Shown: positions 2,893 to 44,870, counted from the stretch's first letter. The stretch is 64,000 nucleotides of DNA from Escherichia coli (GCF_003790525.1 NZ_CP033635.1); one strand, 5' to 3'. The notes: generated from the sequence alone by a model not told the origin. Numbers and translations: made by a program.

Positions 2893-3966
2893 ATGGATAA
2901 CAAAATCGTAGAAATTGAGACAAATAAGCTTGATTTTGACCCTAAAAACCCACGTTTCTTTCGTCTCAATGATGCCAGTAACGCTGCAACAGTCATTGAG
3001 GAAATGTTAGATGACGAAAGTGTCCACGATCTAATGCTATCAATCGGTCAGCAAGGTTACTTTCCTGGAGAACCTTTATTGGCAGTAAAAAGCAATGGAA
3101 ACTACATCGTGGTTGAGGGAAACAGACGCTTAGCTGCTGTAAAGTTGCTCAATGGAGATCTGCTTCCTCCAAAAAGAAAACTTAAAGGTGTGCAAGAAAT
3201 CATTGATGATACTACCAATAAACCTAAGAAGCTTCCCTGCATCATTTATGAAAACCGAGAGGATGTACTGAGATATATCGGTTATCGTCATATAACTGGG
3301 GTCAAAGAATGGGACTCATTATCTAAAGCCAAATACCTTAAAGAGTTATGTGATACTTTTTATTCACATGAGCCTAAAGAGATAGTATTAAAAAATCTGG
3401 CTCGTGAGATTGGGAGTAAACCACATTATGTTGCAACACTTCTCACTGCACTGAACTTATATGAAGTCGCGCATGACCATGAGTTTTTTAATTTACCCAT
3501 GAAGGCTTCTGACGTGGAATTTTCATATATAACCACAGCTTTGGGATATTCAAAAATCACAAACTGGTTAGGTCTACAGGATAAAAAGGATTTTTTAGAC
3601 CCAAATTTAAATGAAGAAAACCTTAAGCGTTTATTCTCTTGGTTTTTTGTGCCTGACCAACAAGGTAGAACCATCATCGGTGAGTCTCGAAGAATAAAAG
3701 ATATTGCAGCAGTGGTTGAGAAACCCGAAGCAATTGAAATTCTCATGAAAAGTTCAAACTTGGATGAAGCATATCTATATACCAGCGGAGAAAGAGAAGC
3801 ATTAGATAAAGCACTAAACGCAGCTAGTGTTAAATTAAGAGTAGTTTGGGATATGCTACTTAAAGCTAAAGAATTAACATTAGAGCATGAAGAGGCTGCA
3901 TCTGAAATTTTTGAGATGTCAAAAAATATTAGAAATCAGATCAGAAGCAAAAGGGAGGATGATTGA
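2893..3966 (+). CDS. ParB/Srx-like N-terminal-domain protein (hotspot cargo gene 1); ORF open from 2761, start 2893 preferred
   Basis: Motifs LDFDPKNPRFF and IVVEGNRRLAAVKL resemble the ParB PNPxQPR and GERRxRA boxes; GAGG 5 nt upstream of ATG 2893; region looks AT-rich. Confidence 0.7.
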   Translation: MDNKIVEIETNKLDFDPKNPRFFRLNDASNAATVIEEMLDDESVHDLMLSIGQQGYFPGEPLLAVKSNGNYIVVEGNRRLAAVKLLNGDLLPPKRKLKGVQEIIDDTTNKPKKLPCIIYENREDVLRYIGYRHITGVKEWDSLSKAKYLKELCDTFYSHEPKEIVLKNLAREIGSKPHYVATLLTALNLYEVAHDHEFFNLPMKASDVEFSYITTALGYSKITNWLGLQDKKDFLDPNLNEENLKRLFSWFFVPDQQGRTIIGESRRIKDIAAVVEKPEAIEILMKSSNLDEAYLYTSGEREALDKALNAASVKLRVVWDMLLKAKELTLEHEEAASEIFEMSKNIRNQIRSKREDD

Positions 3967-4996
3967 GATTATGATTACAAATCTTGATTCAATGCCTTCT
4001 AATGAGCCTTATTTATGGGCTGATTATATTGAGATATTGGCCTTAACTAATATCGACAGGTCATTCAGTCGAGGAGACCTATATAGCACACTGCAAGCTC
4101 AACCCGAAGCAGTACTAGCTGAAACAGATGAAGCAGAAGAAGAGGGCGTTTATGATGTTGATGATGAAAATGATACGCCTGTACGCAAGAGAACAAAACG
4201 AAGTGTTAGTCGAGCATATACTGACAGAAAGTGGAGCTATGCGATAGGCTTCATACGACAACGCATTGATTTATTTGGGGATAGTTACCCTTTTACTTTA
4301 TCAGAAGACAACGATACTGTAGAGTTACGTGATATATCAGAAAAGCCACTGGAACATTTAGAAAGACTATATTTAGCTTTACTAATCTGTGCTAACATAA
4401 AATATGTCAACATAATGAGCAGAAGAGAGATAACGCGCAGTTTTGAACTAATTAGTTTACCTATTTTTGAAAGCCTAATGCCTAGCGGTAGCATAATAAA
4501 AGCATGCTGGGCTTCTGGTGGTCAAGCGGCCCCTTACACTGGAACTCTATATAATAAATTTAAGAGTATTGCTTCCGATATCCGTTGCACAGCGAACTTC
4601 AAAGAACGAGATTTCAGTCGAGGAAATAGTGGTGACGGAGGCCTTGACATAATTGCCTGGCATCCAATGGGAGATCAACGAGATGCCATCCCTATTTCTT
4701 TTGTTCAGTGTGGCTGTTCTCAAGAAGAGTGGGAAGCGAAGCAGCTTGAGGCCTCACCTGCGATGCTCTACAGTAAATTCCCCGTAGCTCACCGATGGGC
4801 AACTTATTATTTCTTACCTCAAGATCTACGATGGATAGATGGTGAGTGGGCGCATAAAAATAAGTTAGGCGATGCTATTTTTGTTGATCGCCTAAGATTA
4901 ATCAATTTAACCAGAGCATCTGATAATATTGATCACAGTCAAAATATTAGCTATCTAGATATCATCCTTGATCCTTCCAGCGCGATCGCTGCTTAA
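3959..4996 (+). CDS. Hypothetical protein, possible PD-(D/E)xK-like nuclease core in C-terminal half (hotspot cargo gene 2)
   Basis: Start ATG 3959 overlaps gene 1 stop (ATGATTGA), alternative ATG 3971; GGAGG at 3954-3958; acidic then basic tract ETDEAEEEGVYDVDDENDTPVRKRTKR; GGLDIIAW ... EEWEAK fits a D...ExK spacing (weak). Confidence 0.6.
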   Translation: MIEIMITNLDSMPSNEPYLWADYIEILALTNIDRSFSRGDLYSTLQAQPEAVLAETDEAEEEGVYDVDDENDTPVRKRTKRSVSRAYTDRKWSYAIGFIRQRIDLFGDSYPFTLSEDNDTVELRDISEKPLEHLERLYLALLICANIKYVNIMSRREITRSFELISLPIFESLMPSGSIIKACWASGGQAAPYTGTLYNKFKSIASDIRCTANFKERDFSRGNSGDGGLDIIAWHPMGDQRDAIPISFVQCGCSQEEWEAKQLEASPAMLYSKFPVAHRWATYYFLPQDLRWIDGEWAHKNKLGDAIFVDRLRLINLTRASDNIDHSQNISYLDIILDPSSAIAA

Positions 4997-5931
4997 TCCC
5001 ATAAATCTGGAAGGTTTCTAGCAACCGCCTCAAACAATGGAGGCGGTACTGCATTACCTACCACAGTATATTTCATATTAATAGAAGCCCGTTCAGTTTC
5101 TGGGAAAATTAAATCCCCAAAACCTTGTAAAATAGCAGCCTCTCGATAGCTAAACCTACGAGCTGGTGCATCCGAAGTAAATTGCCACTTATCAGGTCCC
5201 AATTTTTCTAATGTTGGACTTATTGGATGTAGAGGCATATGTCTAGGATTTGCAACAATTGTTTTAGATATCTGATCCCAATCTTGCCTACGGTTTCGCG
5301 ATAGATAATACCAATGAAAATCGGCGTCATAAAACTCGCCAACAGGCCAAACAGGCATATGCCCAATAGCATCACGAATTGTGGAATATGGTGTCAAACC
5401 ATCACCATGTGTTGGTTTTGGAAATTTGTATGTAATACCGTAGTCCTTTCGTATTCCTACGATAAAGATTCGCTTCCTATCTTGGGATACCCCATAATGG
5501 GACGCATTCAGAATTTGCGAGCTTACTGTATAACCTGCTTCTTCGAAAACTTTGAATTGATCCTTTAATAAATGCTCAAAGTTACGCCTTACCATACCAG
5601 AGACATTCTCTACAATGAATGCTTTTGGCTTAATTTTACTCAAAGCACGGGCAAACTCTAAATATAGTGTATTAATCTTTCTATCTGCCTTCCTTGCCCC
5701 ACCTTGACTAAATCCTTGGCAAGGATAGCATCCGATGAGCAACTCAGCAGAAGGGAACGACTGGAGCCCTGAGATATCGCCCAAAATGTAGTCAGTTTCA
5801 GGATGGTTTTCTAAGTAAACGTCCCTTGCGTAAGGCAAAATATCATTTGCCATAAGCACATTGAAACCTGCGTTCAAAACTCCCGCATCAGAACCACCAC
5901 ATCCAGAAAAAAGTGAAACTACAGTTGGCAT
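4993..5931 (-). CDS. DNA (cytosine-5)-methyltransferase, short HaeIII/HhaI-size type (312 aa)
   Basis: Motif I FSGCGG, motif IV PCQGFS, motif VI ENV, motif VIII QDRKRIFIVG; AGGAGG-type RBS upstream of start; stop overlaps stop of gene 2 within TTAA at 4993-4996. Confidence 0.9.
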   Translation of the reverse strand: MPTVVSLFSGCGGSDAGVLNAGFNVLMANDILPYARDVYLENHPETDYILGDISGLQSFPSAELLIGCYPCQGFSQGGARKADRKINTLYLEFARALSKIKPKAFIVENVSGMVRRNFEHLLKDQFKVFEEAGYTVSSQILNASHYGVSQDRKRIFIVGIRKDYGITYKFPKPTHGDGLTPYSTIRDAIGHMPVWPVGEFYDADFHWYYLSRNRRQDWDQISKTIVANPRHMPLHPISPTLEKLGPDKWQFTSDAPARRFSYREAAILQGFGDLIFPETERASINMKYTVVGNAVPPPLFEAVARNLPDLWD

Positions 5932-6173
5932 TGACCCCTCCTAAAAACCGACCGCGTATTATAGCGAAACACCCCGTTGGGAAAAGCTAGATTTTGCCAA
6001 GTCTTGATATTCTCACGTTTTAGTAGTTGTGGCCATCTTTAACGAGAAAAAGATAAAATTGACTTCTCATTAATTTTCAATAGGTTTAATTGTAAGCTCA
6101 AACTAACGCCTCGCGACACTCGTTATTCAACCCCGCCAGCCCTGAAAACAAGTTTCACGACTGGCGGCGTTCT

Positions 6174-6392
6174 CTATCGTCTGCGTTGTGGTGGCGCAAC
6201 TCTGGACTGACCGATATGGTTAAACCGCCCGTAATTATCCCGGACTATTTCGGCACACCCGACCAGCTCATCGGGCGTCAGATTTTCGTTGACCATAATC
6301 CGCTGTAAACGCTGAACAATAGCCATCAGCTTGATATTTTTAGTTTTATGGTGCGGTATCTCGCCTGGTATTCTGTGCATTATCCAAGCCAC
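6174..6392 (-). CDS. Small hypothetical protein at cargo/replication-module boundary
   Basis: 72-aa ORF only; overlaps 3' end of ASCH gene; no recognisable motif. Confidence 0.3.
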   Translation of the reverse strand: MAWIMHRIPGEIPHHKTKNIKLMAIVQRLQRIMVNENLTPDELVGCAEIVRDNYGRFNHIGQSRVAPPQRRR

Positions 6393-15540: not shown

Positions 15541-15640
15541 GCATTGTAGGCAGGATAAGGCGTTTACGCCGCATCCGGCATTTGAGCAGGATGCCTGATG
15601 CGACGCTGATAGCGTCTTATCAGGCCTACACTCCGGGGGT
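15541..15640. repeat. REP/BIME palindromic elements
   Basis: gcctgatgcgacgctg ... cgtcttatcaggcctac type REP units between cpxA and yiiM. Confidence 0.6.
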
Positions 15641-38030: not shown

Positions 38031-38867
38031 TTAATTATGAATCAAACGCTGCGGATGGGTATAAACCGTTGCCCGACCCGGTTTACAAAAACCTACCAGT
38101 GTCAGATTACAGCGCTCAGCCACTTCTACAGCAAGCGTGGTCGCGGCAGACACCGCAAACAAAATCTCTACGCCGCACATCGCTGACTTTTGCACCATTT
38201 CATAACTGGCACGGCTGGAAACCAGCACCGCACCTTGCTGCCAGCTTTCCCCTTCTTGTGACCGGCGGCCTAACAGTTTGTCCAGCGCCACATGGCGACC
38301 CACGTCTTCATGCCCGCCGACCAGTTCGCCAGATGGCAACATCCAGGCGGCGGCGTGAGTACAACCGGTCAGTTGCCCCACTGGCTGAAAATCATTGAGA
38401 TGACGTAATGCATCATCCAGTTTGTTGAGATCAAACGTCTGGGTGAACGGTAGCGGCTGCACCGGTTTTCCGATGTCATTAAGTTGCTCCACGCCGCACA
38501 CGCCACATCCCGTACGTCCCGCCAGTGCCCGGCGACGCTCCTTCAACCCCATAAAGCGGCGGCTGGAAAGCTCAATTTGCACTTCCAGACCATTACAGGA
38601 AGGAACGACATCCATACCGAAGATATCGCGCGGACTTTCGATAATCCCCTCGGAAAGCGAAAAACCGAGCGCAAAGTACTCAAGGTCTTTGGGTGACGCC
38701 ATCATCACTACATGCGAAATGCCGTTGTAGACCAGCGCAACGGGAACCTCTTCCGCCACCTCATCTAACCGTGGGTGTTGTAAATCATCACGCCGCCATA
38801 ACTCAATTTGACGAACACCTGTGACACTTGTCACATTTTCGATTTCTTTTTGCTGTGTTTTTTTCAC
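38031..38867 (-). CDS. fdhD: Formate dehydrogenase sulfurtransferase/accessory protein FdhD
   Basis: 278 aa, synteny divergent from fdoGHI. Confidence 0.9.
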
Positions 38868-39060
38868 TTTCTCTTAACCAGATAAGAACACACACACCAA
38901 CATTATGGTATTCTGTTACAAACCCTTCCTGGATGGAGGGAAATTGAGCCAATTCTGGACCTTTGCGGCCCCTTCCGCAAAGAAAAATAACTCCCACTCC
39001 CTGCACACGCAGCAAGCGAATGTAAATGGGACGTGACAATGTCGAAACAAGGAGCAATCC

Positions 39061-42000
39061 ATGCAGGTCAGCAGAAGGCAGTTCTTTAAGATCTGCGCTG
39101 GCGGTATGGCAGGCACCACGGCAGCGGCACTGGGTTTTGCACCCAGCGTAGCACTCGCGGAAACCCGGCAGTATAAACTGCTGCGCACCCGCGAAACCCG
39201 TAATACCTGCACCTATTGTTCCGTAGGCTGTGGGCTGTTGATGTACAGCCTCGGTGACGGAGCAAAAAACGCCAAAGCATCTATCTTCCATATCGAAGGT
39301 GACCCGGATCACCCGGTCAACCGCGGAGCACTTTGTCCGAAAGGCGCTGGCCTGGTGGATTTCATCCACTCCGAAAGCCGCCTGAAGTTTCCGGAATACC
39401 GTGCGCCAGGTTCTGATAAATGGCAACAAATCAGTTGGGAAGAGGCGTTTGATCGCATCGCCAAACTGATGAAAGAAGACCGCGATGCGAACTACATTGC
39501 GCAAAACGCCGAAGGCGTGACTGTTAACCGCTGGCTCTCCACCGGGATGCTGTGTGCTTCCGCGTCGAGCAACGAAACCGGCTATTTAACACAAAAATTC
39601 TCCCGCGCGCTGGGTATGCTCGCGGTCGACAACCAGGCGCGTGTCTGACACGGACCAACGGTAGCAAGTCTTGCTCCAACATTTGGTCGCGGTGCGATGA
39701 CCAACCACTGGGTCGACATCAAGAATGCCAACCTCGTCGTGGTGATGGGCGGTAACGCCGCTGAAGCTCACCCGGTCGGGTTCCGCTGGGCGATGGAAGC
39801 CAAAATTCACAACGGCGCGAAGCTGATTGTGATCGATCCTCGCTTTACACGTACGGCGGCGGTGGCTGACTACTATGCCCCTATTCGTTCCGGGACTGAC
39901 ATTGCTTTCCTGTCAGGCGTATTGCTGTACCTGCTGAACAATGAAAAATTCAACCGCGAATACACCGAAGCCTATACCAACGCCAGCCTGATCGTGCGTG
40001 AGGATTACGGCTTTGAAGATGGCCTGTTCACCGGCTACGACGCGGAAAAACGCAAGTACGATAAATCCAGCTGGACCTACGAGCTGGACGAAAACGGCTT
40101 CGCCAAACGCGATACCACGCTGCAACATCCGCGCTGCGTGTGGAACTTGCTGAAACAGCACGTTTCCCGTTATACGCCAGATGTGGTTGAAAACATCTGT
40201 GGTACGCCGAAAGACGCGTTCCTGAAAGTCTGCGAATACATCGCAGAGACCAGTGCTCACGATAAAACTGCCTCGTTCCTTTACGCGCTCGGCTGGACGC
40301 AACACTCCATTGGTGCGCAAAACATTCGTACGATGGCGATGATCCAGCTGCTGCTCGGCAACATGGGGATGGCAGGCGGCGGCGTTAACGCCCTGCGCGG
40401 TCACTCCAATATTCAGGGGCTGACCGACCTGGGGCTGCTGTCGCAGAGTCTGCCAGGTTACATGACGTTGCCAAGCGAGAAGCAGACCGATCTGCAAACT
40501 TACCTTACCGCCAACACGCCGAAACCACTGCTGGAAGGCCAGGTTAACTACTGGGGCAATTACCCGAAATTCTTCGTCTCCATGATGAAGGCCTTCTTTG
40601 GTGATAAAGCGACGGCGGAAAATAACTGGGGCTTTGACTGGTTGCCGAAGTGGGATAAAGGCTACGACGTCCTGCAATACTTCGAGATGATGAAAGAGGG
40701 CAAGGTCAATGGCTATATCTGCCAGGGCTTTAACCCTGTTGCCTCATTCCCGAACAAAAACAAAGTGATCGGCTGTCTGTCGAAACTGAAGTTCCTCGTG
40801 ACCATCGACCCGCTGAACACTGAAACCTCTAACTTCTGGCAGAACCACGGTGAACTGAACGAAGTTGACTCGTCGAAGATCCAGACCGAAGTGTTCCGTC
40901 TGCCATCGACCTGCTTCGCGGAAGAGAACGGTTCAATCGTCAACTCTGGCCGCTGGTTGCAGTGGCACTGGAAAGGTGCGGACGCCCCGGGGATTGCGCT
41001 GACTGACGGCGAGATCCTCTCCGGTATCTTCCTGCGCTTGCGCAAGATGTATGCCGAACAGGGTGGCGCGAACCCGGACCAGGTGCTGAACATGACCTGG
41101 AACTACGCCATTCCGCATGAGCCATCTTCAGAAGAAGTGGCGATGGAGAGTAACGGTAAGGCGCTGGCCGATATTACCGATCCGGCAACCGGTGCGGTTA
41201 TCGTCAAGAAAGGCCAACAACTTAGCTCGTTCGCCCAACTGCGCGATGACGGTACAACCTCCTGTGGCTGCTGGATTTTCGCCGGTAGCTGGACGCCGGA
41301 AGGCAACCAGATGGCGCGTCGTGATAACGCCGATCCGTCTGGCCTCGGTAACACGCTGGGCTGGGCATGGGCATGGCCGCTTAACCGCCGCATTCTGTAT
41401 AACCGCGCCTCCGCAGATCCGCAGGGTAACCCATGGGATCCGAAGCGTCAGTTGCTGAAATGGGACGGCACTAAGTGGACCGGCTGGGATATTCCGGATT
41501 ACAGCGCAGCGCCTCCGGGCAGTGGCGTCGGGCCGTTTATCATGCAGCAGGAAGGCATGGGGCGTCTGTTTGCCCTCGATAAGATGGCGGAAGGTCCGTT
41601 CCCGGAACACTACGAGCCGTTTGAAACGCCGCTGGGAACTAACCCGCTGCATCCAAACGTTATCTCGAACCCGGCTGCGCGAATCTTTAAAGACGACGCC
41701 GAAGCATTGGGTAAAGCCGATAAGTTCCCGTATGTCGGAACCACCTATCGTCTGACCGAGCACTTCCACTACTGGACCAAACACGCGCTGTTGAACGCGA
41801 TTTTGCAACCAGAGCAGTTTGTGGAAATCGGGGAGTCGCTGGCGAATAAACTTGGCATTGCCCAGGGCGATACTGTGAAAGTCTCCTCCAACCGTGGCTA
41901 TATCAAAGCCAAAGCGGTAGTGACCAAACGTATTCGCACGCTGAAAGCAAACGGCAAAGATATCGATACCATCGGTATTCCGATTCACTGGGGCTATGAA

Positions 42001-42111
42001 GGTGTTGCGAAAAAAGGCTTTATTGCCAATACGTTGACGCCATTCGTCGGTGATGCGAACACGCAGACGCCGGAGTTTAAGTCCTTCCTTGTGAATGTGG
42101 AAAAGGTGTAA
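39061..42111 (+). CDS. fdoG: Formate dehydrogenase-O major subunit; in-frame UGA (39646-39648) read as selenocysteine
   Basis: Two listed ORFs (39061-39648 and 39697-42111) share one frame; ... NQARV-TGA-HGPTVA ... is the conserved Sec context; Tat signal RRQFFK. Confidence 0.9.
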
Positions 42112-42123
42112 CGGAGACGACAT

Positions 42124-43026
42124 ATGGCTTATCAATCGCAAGATATCATTCGTCGTTCCGCGACTAACGGTCTGACCCCCGCGCCTCAGGCGCGGGACTT
42201 CCAGGAAGAAGTGGCGAAACTCATCGACGTCACCACCTGTATCGGCTGTAAAGCCTGTCAGGTGGCGTGTTCAGAGTGGAACGACATTCGCGATACCGTC
42301 GGCAATAACATTGGGGTGTACGACAACCCCAATGATTTAAGTGCCAAATCGTGGACGGTGATGCGATTCTCGGAAGTGGAGCAGAACGACAAACTGGAAT
42401 GGCTGATCCGCAAAGACGGCTGTATGCACTGTTCCGATCCAGGCTGCCTGAAAGCGTGCCCGGCGGAAGGGGCAATTATTCAGTATGCCAACGGTATCGT
42501 CGACTTCCAGTCCGAGCAGTGCATCGGCTGCGGTTATTGCATTGCGGGCTGTCCGTTCGACATTCCGCGCCTCAACCCGGAAGATAACCGCGTCTACAAA
42601 TGTACGTTGTGCGTTGACCGCGTGGTGGTTGGGCAAGAACCGGCCTGCGTGAAGACCTGCCCAACGGGCGCGATTCACTTCGGTACGAAAGAGTCGATGA
42701 AAACGCTGGCGAGCGAGCGCGTGGCGGAGCTGAAAACCCGTGGTTACGACAATGCGGGTCTGTACGATCCGGCAGGCGTCGGTGGTACACACGTTATGTA
42801 CGTGCTGCACCATGCTGACAAGCCAAATCTGTATCATGGCTTGCCGGAGAACCCGGAAATCAGCGAAACCGTGAAATTCTGGAAAGGCATCTGGAAACCG
42901 CTCGCAGCTGTTGGCTTTGCGGCTACCTTCGCAGCCAGTATCTTCCACTACGTGGGTGTCGGTCCGAACCGTGCGGATGAGGAAGAGAATAATCTGCACG
43001 AAGAGAAAGACGAGGAGCGCAAATGA
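42124..43026 (+). CDS. fdoH: Formate dehydrogenase-O Fe-S subunit
   Basis: Multiple CxxCxxCxxxC ferredoxin motifs. Confidence 0.95.
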
Positions 43027-43658
43027 AACGACGTGACACCATCGTGCGCTACACCGCGCCGGAACGTATCAACCACTGGATCACCGCCTTCTGCTTCATC
43101 CTGGCGGCGGTGAGCGGGCTGGGCTTTTTGTTCCCGTCCTTCAACTGGTTGATGCAAATCATGGGCACATCGCAGCTGGCGCGCATTCTGCACCCGTTTG
43201 TCGGCGTGGTTATGTTTGCCTCGTTCATCATCATGTTTTTCCGTTACTGGCATCACAACCTAATCAATCGGGATGATATCTTTTGGGCGAAGAATATTCG
43301 TAAGATCGTCGTCAACGAGGAAGTAGGCGACACCGGGCGTTATAACTTCGGTCAGAAATGCGTTTTCTGGGCGGCGATTATTTTCCTGGTTCTGCTGCTG
43401 GTGAGCGGCGTGATTATCTGGCGTCCTTATTTTGCGCCTGCTTTCTCAATCCCGGTGATCCGATTCGCGTTAATGCTGCATTCATTTGCCGCAGTGGCGT
43501 TAATTGTGGTTATCATGGTGCATATCTACGCCGCCCTTTGGGTGAAAGGCACGATTACCGCCATGGTGGAAGGATGGGTTACCAGCGCCTGGGCGAAGAA
43601 ACATCACCCGCGCTGGTACCGTGAGGTCCGCAAGACAACGGAAAAGAAAGCTGAATGA
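43023..43658 (+). CDS. fdoI: Formate dehydrogenase-O cytochrome b556 subunit
   Basis: 211 aa membrane protein. Confidence 0.95.
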
Positions 43659-44584
43659 GTATTCGCATAATCCCGCAAGATGAGCTGGGTTCGAGCGAGA
43701 AACGTACGGCGGATATGATTCCGCCGTTATTGTTCCCTCGGCTCAAGAATTTATACAACCGCCGCGCCGAGCGTCTGCGCGAGCTGGCAGAAAATAATCC
43801 GCTGGGTGATTACCTGCGCTTTGCTGCGCTTATCGCCCACGCCCAGGAAGTGGTGCTGTACGACCATCCGCTGGAGATGGATCTGACCACGCGCATTAAA
43901 GAAGCCAGCGCACAAGGCAAGCCCCCGCTGGATATTCACGTTCTGCCGCGTGATAAGCACTGGCAAAAGCTGCTGATGGCGCTGATTGCTGAGCTGAAAC
44001 CTGAAATGAGCGGCCCGGCGCTGGCAGTGATTGAGAATCTGGAGAAGGCATCGACTCAGGAGCTGGAAGATATGGCCAGCGCACTGTTTGCCTCTGATTT
44101 CTCGTCCGTCAGCAGCGATAAAGCGCCGTTTATCTGGGCTGCGCTGTCGCTCTACTGGGCGCAGATGGCTAATCTGATCCCCGGCAAAGCCCGCGCTGAA
44201 TACGGCGAACAACGTCAATATTGCCCGGTATGTGGCTCTATGCCGGTGTCCAGCATGGTGCAAATTGGCACCACTCAGGGGCTGCGTTACCTGCACTGCA
44301 ACCTGTGTGAAACCGAATGGCACGTAGTGCGCGTAAAATGCAGCAACTGCGAGCAGAGCGGCAAACTGCATTACTGGTCGCTGGATGACGAACAGGCCGC
44401 GATTAAAGCCGAAAGCTGCGATGACTGCGGCACTTACCTGAAAATTCTCTATCAGGAAAAAGATCCAAAAATCGAAGCCGTAGCAGATGACCTCGCCTCT
44501 CTGGTACTGGACGCGCGAATGGAGCAAGAAGGCTACGCCCGTAGTTCTATTAACCCGTTCTTGTTTCCGGGTGAAGGGGAGTAA
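43655..44584 (+). CDS. fdhE: Formate dehydrogenase formation protein FdhE
   Basis: 309 aa, CxxC clusters. Confidence 0.95.
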
Positions 44585-44759
44585 TCTCTGACGTTTTCCG
44601 GGTGGCGCAGGTCGCCCGGATTACAGCTCATAGGGTGTGACGACACTATCTCTCGTATTCCGCGTTACCCATTCAAGATCATGCCGCAATTGTCTGTTTG
44701 CCTCGTTCTTCCCTCCAACACATCGATAAGGTTATGGGTATGTCACTGATGACAAGCGT

Positions 44760-44870
44760 ATGATTGCCTGATGCGCTGCGCTTATCAGGCCTACCAATAA
44801 ACTTCAATATATTGAATTTGCATGACTTTGTAGGCCGGATAAGGCGTTCACGCCGCATCCAGCATGAACA
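44760..44870. repeat. BIME: two inverted REP units
   Basis: gcctgatgcgctgcgcttatcaggcctac and gtaggccggataaggcgttcacgccgcatcc. Confidence 0.6.

Follow-up and report, generated by a model that had tools for sequence, protein, structure and literature searches.

The question raised by this locus is whether an in-frame TGA at 39646-39648 ends a gene or is read as an amino acid. The ORF list of the window, by which the whole 64,000-nt stretch of Escherichia coli DNA is meant, has two + strand entries here, 39061..39648 (195 aa) and 39697..42111 (804 aa). An earlier note on this DNA had held that the two parts share one frame, that the TGA between them is the selenocysteine codon of the formate dehydrogenase gene fdoG, and that the gene should not be called a pseudogene. 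The evidence assembled below leaves very little doubt that 39061-42111 is an intact fdoG with a selenocysteine codon and a SECIS element, in which UGA 196 is recoded as selenocysteine.

Reading frame and identity of the gene

The gene, the features at and near its 5' end, and the genes around it are as follows.

39061..42111, + strand: fdoG coding sequence, formate dehydrogenase-O alpha subunit, 1016 aa with selenocysteine at 196 (translation, TIGR01553, K-12 identity, RefSeq)
39049..39054, + strand: putative Shine-Dalgarno-like AAGGAG, 6 nt before the start codon ATG of fdoG at 39061 (read from the sequence)
39061..39159, + strand: predicted N-terminal twin-arginine (Tat) signal region, MQVSRRQFFKICAGG...ALA, extent approximate (SRRQFFK motif; aligns to the N-terminus of FdnG in 1KQF)
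39646..39648, + strand: UGA codon 196, read as selenocysteine (translation, 1KQF alignment, published mass spectrometry (PMC3636253), conservation of the surrounding 71-mer)
38031..38867, - strand: fdhD, accessory sulfurtransferase, divergent from fdoG (TIGR00129, 339.2 bits; RefSeq)
42124..43026, + strand: fdoH, Fe-S beta subunit (TIGR01582, 478.7 bits; RefSeq)
43023..43658, + strand: fdoI, cytochrome b556 gamma subunit (NF007924, 450.3 bits; RefSeq)
43655..44584, + strand: fdhE, formate dehydrogenase accessory protein (NF002925, 603.9 bits)

Translation of 39061-42111 in one frame gave 1016 codons with one internal stop; by direct reading the TGA at 39646-39648 is codon 196, and the stop codon of fdoG is at 42109-42111. 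The starts of the two listed ORFs, 39061 and 39697, are 636 nt apart (212 x 3, or 212 codons), and the two parts on either side of the break are therefore in the same frame, as the earlier note had stated. Around the stop the translation reads ...LAVDNQARV*HGPTVASLAPTFGRGAM..., in which the context given by that note, ARV-UGA-HGPTVA, is found exactly. The frame is open from 39649 onward, and the interval 39649-39696 appears between the listed ORFs because the list starts the second one at Met213, the first ATG beyond the stop.

The protein obtained by reading through the TGA was identical to K-12 FdoG (b3894) at 1014/1016 residues (99.8%), the two amino-acid differences being I417V and N522S, and to FdnG at 782/1016 (77%). 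With the NCBIfam model TIGR01553 (cut-off 814), the part N-terminal to the TGA scored 271 bits over profile positions 1-194 and the C-terminal part scored 1279 bits over positions 196-1009; the profile is thus unbroken across both halves save for one position, that of the UGA. When residue 196 was entered as X, it fell opposite the X that stands for Sec196 in 1KQF chain A (E = 7e-272), which places the UGA at the conserved selenocysteine site of formate dehydrogenases, and the alignment to this crystal structure of FdnG ran from end to end with no break at the UGA. The alignment across the junction, proposed as a check in the earlier note, is continuous with FdnG and FdoG alike.

The assignment to fdoG likewise holds. 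K-12 fdoG shows no difference over the 66 nt around the UGA (100% identity), the operon context is the same (fdhD / fdoGHI-fdhE), and the gene order, fdhD (divergent) / fdoG-fdoH-fdoI-fdhE, is that of K-12. The locus differs from K-12 by a 4.5-kb insertion of two genes between fdhD and yiiG, outside the operon. These two inserted genes near fdhD carry a GHKL/HSP90-like ATPase domain, TPR repeats, and a weak TmtA match (PADLOC and Pfam).

RefSeq annotation was taken from SMS-3-5; the reverse complement of NC_010498.1:4357564-4421563 differs from the window at 2 of 64,000 nt. There the gene is a single 3051-nt CDS that spans the TGA and carries no pseudogene flag; the same gene in K-12 is annotated as fdoG, b3894, likewise as a single CDS. 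The PGAP gene label, 'fdnG', is the name of the equivalog model, and the gene is to be called fdoG, not fdnG, because of its neighbouring genes and its sequence identity. E. coli fdnG (b1474, formate dehydrogenase N, 1KQF) is a paralogue of the window fdoG, with 77% protein and 75.5% DNA identity; fold and cofactor family are common to the two, and selenocysteine is likewise at residue 196. The fdnG locus differs from that of fdoG in that fdnG sits with fdnHI. The fdn operon is nitrate-inducible, and fdo is not known to be.

Formate dehydrogenase O, whose catalytic subunit is FdoG, is a respiratory enzyme that faces the periplasm and has a molybdenum bis-MGD cofactor. The location of Fdh-O is reported as periplasmic (PMC3160892), and the SRRQFFK twin-arginine motif of FdoG agrees with this.

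The SECIS element after codon 196

The sequence immediately downstream of the UGA was compared with the Rfam covariance models, folded, and aligned with its counterparts in other Proteobacteria. Three nested features were delimited.

39643..39701, + strand: SECIS element, full-length match to RF01989 SECIS_3 (model 1-59 of 59; 84.3 bits, E = 1.4e-19)
39649..39691, + strand: whole SECIS hairpin, lower and upper helices, beginning directly after the UGA (MFE structure, pair counts)
39660..39677, + strand: apical stem-loop GGU(bulge)AGCAA-GUC-UUGCUCC, presumed SelB-binding part (pairing, covariation)

The RF01989 match is full-length and lies above the gathering score of 63, with E = 1.4e-18 when scaled to the whole 64-kb window; it was the sole SECIS match to the Rfam covariance models within that window, and SECIS_2 scored 28 bits on the same element, below threshold. 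The hairpin that had been proposed just 3' of the UGA occupies 39649-39691, within the range proposed for it. It lies inside the CDS, with pairing that starts at 39649, immediately 3' of the in-frame UGA. In the predicted apical stem-loop the bulged U is 39662, itself a predicted feature, and the loop G and U are 39668-39669. With 7 bp in the apical stem and 20 nt from the A of the UGA to the loop G (39668), the element matches the published description of bacterial SECIS elements, in which an apical stem of 6-8 bp carries a conserved loop G some 20 nt past the UGA (PMC4605307).

The experimentally dissected prototype is the SECIS of E. coli fdhF (formate dehydrogenase H, Sec140). The context ARV-UGA-HGP occurs in both fdhF and fdoG, and the two sequences are almost the same over the 11 nt that follow the UGA. 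Numbered with the U of UGA as 1, both elements have a bulged U at 17, a loop G at 23, and a loop U at 24 in the alignment to K-12 fdhF. We take U17, G23, and U24 of fdhF to be SelB determinants. The two elements differ in the apical stem (UGCA/UGCA in fdhF, AGCAA/UUGCU in fdoG) and in the loop (GGUC and (A)GUC(U), respectively), and the 3' half of the fdhF SECIS is unrelated to that of fdoG.

The folding test suggested in the earlier note was borne out in part: the hairpin does appear, but its energy is like that of shuffled sequences (z = -0.2 to -0.6) and is not decisive. Against dinucleotide shuffles, z was -0.21 for the MFE of 39646-39700 and -0.61 for that of 39646-39697, and values of about -2.1 were obtained only for the trimmed hairpin 39649-39691 and the apical part 39660-39677. 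The fdhF element, a proven SECIS, was likewise no better than shuffles (z = +0.09). Since neither the proven fdhF element nor that of fdoG exceeds its shuffles, folding energy alone is a poor test for such elements.

Comparative evidence was more informative about the helix. A search was made with the degenerate DNA pattern V-UGA-HGPTVASLAPTFG, in which all synonymous positions were left free, using one genome per species. It returned at least 120 loci across Proteobacteria, the search pattern itself demanding the UGA context; the matches listed include Enterobacterales, Pseudomonas, Rhizobiales, Burkholderiales, Chromatiaceae, and Geobacter-like taxa. The 63 distinct 71-mers among the matches listed were aligned without gaps and used as the comparative set. 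In the apical helix (columns 18-25 with 29-35), a standard pair was present in 100% of cells for these 63 distinct sequences. Pair 21:33 covaries as GC in 37 sequences, AU in 19, and GU in 7, and pair 24:30 as CG in 27, AU in 25, and GC in 11 (63 sequences each); both pairs join third-codon positions on the two sides, and there was no exception to the covariation. The covariation score was 0.201, against 0.104 for column shuffles, a value reached by 0/500 of them, and slid controls gave 0.084 or less. Over the whole hairpin 91-92% of positions were paired, against 26-54% in slid controls; sliding the partner by 1-3 columns lowered pairing from 91% to 26-48%.

No variation occurs at the loop G and U among the 63 distinct sequences, although the U stands at a synonymous site (AGU or AGC, with UCN also allowed by the pattern). 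All 63 also have G at column 18.

Covariation was weak in the lower helix, and its register is ambiguous. The consensus register of Rfam SECIS_3 leaves two mismatches in the E. coli type, A12-G44 and A8-C48, and fits the C12 type seen in Pseudomonas and Rhizobiales; the E. coli type, which has A at column 12, is better accommodated when the register moves by one position and G47 bulges out. Overall pairing in the two registers is alike, at 90.9% and 91.6%. RNAalifold on the 63 sequences preferred G19-C38/U20-A37 over the bulged-U pairing and added a closing helix of 1-3 with 57-59. Covariation cannot choose between the RNAalifold and bulged-U pairings because the columns concerned show no variation or C/U exchanges only.

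Decoding of UGA 196 and rival readings

Zorn et al. found by mass spectrometry the peptide VU196HGPTVASLAPTFGR, with selenocysteine at codon 196 of FdoG/FdnG, in E. coli MC4100; cysteine was never found at position 196 of either protein, and in a selC mutant, which lacks Sec-tRNA(Sec), translation of fdoG and fdnG ended at codon 196 (PMC3636253). For FdoG/FdnG of MC4100, selenocysteine at residue 196 is thus given by direct analysis of the protein, and the same residue is expected in the window's strain.

The codon is conserved throughout the species. The TGA-containing 71-mer 39643-39713 was present in 5425/5426 complete E. coli genomes, as a rule in two copies, one in fdoG and one in fdnG, and the best copy was at least 99% identical in 5432 of the 5433 E. 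coli records. No tRNA gene was found within the 64-kb window, and sel genes were absent from it; in the species-wide count selC was present in 5424/5426 complete E. coli genomes and selAB in 5425/5426.

Delivery of Sec-tRNA(Sec) by SelB at a SECIS is the established mechanism in E. coli and the textbook one for bacteria. The fdoG mRNA at 39649-39691, directly 3' of the UGA, folds into the SECIS hairpin, and on this model the C-terminal domain of SelB would, by analogy, bind the apical stem-loop at 39660-39677. SelB would carry GTP and Sec-tRNA(Sec), the selC product charged via SelA and SelD. With the UGA in the ribosomal A site, the tethered SelB would deliver Sec-tRNA(Sec) in competition with release factor 2, and translation would then run on to the stop at 42109-42111. 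In the FdnG structure the selenium of selenocysteine is a ligand of the active-site molybdenum; by homology with FdnG, the selenium of FdoG would ligate the molybdenum of the bis-MGD cofactor. For the window's strain, we infer both the binding of SelB and the ligation of molybdenum.

Three other readings of the locus were weighed, and together they retain only a sliver of the probability. The first is that fdoG is a pseudogene, with a nonsense mutation at codon 196 that leaves a 195-aa fragment only. This agrees with the mechanical ORF list, which splits fdoG at 39646-39648, and with the fact that translation does stop at codon 196 when Sec-tRNA(Sec) is lacking (PMC3636253). A stop found with its 71-mer in 5425/5426 E. 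coli genomes is not sporadic, however, and the same codon occurs in at least 120 loci across Proteobacteria, where the search pattern required it. The 820 codons downstream are open, score 1279 bits to TIGR01553, and show no decay, a SECIS follows the TGA, and the RefSeq CDS is not flagged as a pseudogene. The conservation data and the published mass spectrometry refute this reading, to which we attach hardly any weight. The earlier note's warning against it was well founded, given the intact downstream frame, the conserved TGA, and the single RefSeq CDS.

No more probable is that the UGA is read by a near-cognate tRNA (Trp or Cys) or by some other SelB-independent route and does not specify selenocysteine. 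Low-level UGA read-through exists in E. coli. The sequence itself lends this reading no support. A canonical, covarying SECIS follows the UGA, and the aligned residue in 1KQF is selenocysteine. The absence of cysteine at position 196 and the termination in selC mutants (PMC3636253) argue against it as well.

Least probable of all, despite the two separate entries in the ORF list, is a pair of genes encoding a 195-aa protein (39061-39648) and an 804-aa protein from the ATG at 39697, since the 16 in-frame codons at 39649-39696 encode HGPTVASLAPTFGRGA, which is identical to FdnG, aligns unbroken to 1KQF, and is covered by TIGR01553, while no ribosome-binding motif was seen by eye before 39697, the ATG there is Met213 within a conserved tract, and the reported peptide VU196HGPTVASLAPTFGR spans the junction (PMC3636253).

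Synonymous sites around the UGA in Enterobacterales

Selenocysteine recoding of UGA 196 in fdoG is accompanied by a constraint on the coding sequence that extends over the following feature.

39643..39711, + strand: tract with frozen synonymous sites in Enterobacterales, spanning codons 195-217, 69 nt (fdoG/fdnG run; third-position statistics)

When the window fdoG was compared with K-12 fdnG (75.5% DNA identity), a perfect run of 71 nt, exactly 39643-39713, was observed over the UGA and SECIS. The next longest identical run between fdoG and fdnG is 27 nt, and 23 identical codons in a row were obtained in 3/20,000 permutations of synonymous identity. The same 71-mer was found in at least 49 of the scanned loci, belonging to at least 22 named genera of Enterobacterales. 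Third positions were examined in the 59 distinct Enterobacterales loci among the matches listed, with flank codons of equally invariant amino acid as the reference. The majority-base fraction was 0.979 in codons 195-217 versus 0.668 in the flanks (p = 5e-11), and the edges of the tract are sharp, with a fraction of 0.59 one codon before it (194) and of 0.53 one codon after it (218). Between Providencia and the window, third positions were identical at 23/23 sites inside the tract and at 39% outside it.

The freeze is a property of Enterobacterales. In the 56 non-Enterobacterales loci listed, the corresponding fractions were 0.688 in the tract and 0.696 in the flanks, and the helix is kept there by covariation. 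The sites frozen in Enterobacterales include positions of the loop, the internal loop, and the 3' tail that are free to vary in other Proteobacteria. Synonymous conservation in Enterobacterales also runs about 10 nt beyond the 3' end of the Rfam SECIS_3 model, which suggests that the curated model stops slightly short of the end of the constrained element.

Gene conversion between fdoG and fdnG was considered as the main cause of the 71-nt run and rejected, as the same 71-mer occurs in distant genera and the flanks are saturated. No earlier account of the synonymous freeze was found in the literature searched, which mostly omits older subscription papers on SECIS elements.

It is conceivable, though we regard it as unlikely, that a constraint additional to the minimal SelB-binding hairpin acts on the Enterobacterales tract. 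Such a constraint could come from an extended or alternative structure in which the UGA itself takes part (A6-U51, or 1-3 with 57-59), from the kinetics of unwinding by the ribosome, or from a second trans-acting partner. Mundane causes of the freeze are at least as likely. Our guess at the simplest account is that any single change in a weak, A-U-rich helix is deleterious, with codon preference added to this; preferred codons could be the cause of conservation at codons 214-216.

The value of the result is for annotation: fdoG should be entered as a single selenoprotein gene of 1016 aa that carries a translation exception for codon 196, and neither as a pseudogene nor as two ORFs. RefSeq already complies: the Sec196 codon of fdoG is known and correctly annotated there, and knowledge of selenocysteine decoding is unchanged. 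The frozen tract, for its part, is a clean and quantified case of an RNA signal overriding synonymous drift within a coding region, spanning a whole bacterial order and two paralogues with sharp edges.

Frozen tract around the selenocysteine codon

The alpha-subunit gene of the formate dehydrogenase operon and its selenocysteine signal are placed in the window as follows.

Features at the selenocysteine site
39061-42111 (+), fdoG
39646-39648 (+), UGA codon (Sec196)
39643-39701 (+), match to the Rfam SECIS_3 model
39643-39713 (+), 71 nt shared with fdnG

The paralogues fdoG and fdnG, which share 75.5% identity overall, are perfectly identical over 71 nt (window 39643-39713, equivalent to 984-1054 of L003, the K-12 fdnG locus). 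The identical 71-mer was found in at least 49 of the loci from the cross-species pattern scan (L006-L123), representing at least 22 named genera of Enterobacterales. Synonymous sites were frozen across codons 195-217 (0.979 versus 0.668 in the flanks), the edges of the tract were sharp, and the tract overran the Rfam SECIS_3 model by about 10 nt. Loop and tail positions, which are variable in other Proteobacteria, were likewise frozen.

The third position of Val195, directly before the UGA (window 39645; column 3 of A3, the alignment of distinct 71-mers from Proteobacteria), was C or U in 63 of 63 distinct sequences and A or G in none of them. GUY (39643-39645) was paired with GAC (39699-39701) by RNAalifold, whereas the Rfam model leaves both segments unpaired. 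Such a long-range helix of 3 bp, as predicted by RNAalifold, would surround the UGA.

Gene naming and the region 5' of fdoG

In NC_010498.1 (L001, the SMS-3-5 region; 3162-6212), PGAP labels fdoG as "fdnG, formate dehydrogenase-N subunit alpha"; the gene so labelled is 99.8% identical to K-12 FdoG and stands next to genes named fdoH and fdoI. The same naming was present in all 22 of the matches listed from two E. coli searches (5433 records matched). The label is a naming artefact derived from the TIGR01553 equivalog. A match to Rfam RF02778 (FdoG-1 5' UTR thermometer) at 38892-39090 (+), taking in the interval between fdhD and fdoG plus the 5' end of fdoG, scored 32 bits (E = 4e-5), below the gathering score of 50.

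Other features of the window

Genes typical of P2-like prophages, according to the annotation of the matching SMS-3-5 record, adjoin cpxP. A transposase and a truncated gene lie past two CopG-family regulator genes downstream of the fdo operon, on the fabY side.

Features outside the fdo operon
1 to about 12631, prophage-type genes (SMS-3-5 annotation): terminase, portal, replication endonuclease, Cox-family protein, integrase, DNA cytosine methyltransferase, ParB-domain protein
15549-15626 (+), naRNA4 (REP-derived), full match, 78.6 bits
33578-37721 (-), two-gene insertion: (1) 611-aa GHKL/HSP90-like ATPase (RefSeq "ATP-binding protein"; Pfam HATPase_c_3 and HSP90; weak PADLOC TmtA match); (2) 768-aa TPR-repeat protein (RefSeq "hypothetical protein")
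44741-44869, naRNA4/REP-like, partial matches
44787-44829 (-), Rfam ES036/CssrF sRNA, directly downstream of fdhE, 39.6 bits (gathering score 37.6)
about 46288-48102, transposase and truncated hypothetical gene flagged as pseudogene (SMS-3-5 annotation)

The 4.5-kb insertion occupies the yiiG-fdhD interval and is absent from K-12. Its TPR-repeat protein had no defence-system match, and the insertion possibly represents a so far uncharacterised cassette with an accessory or defence role.
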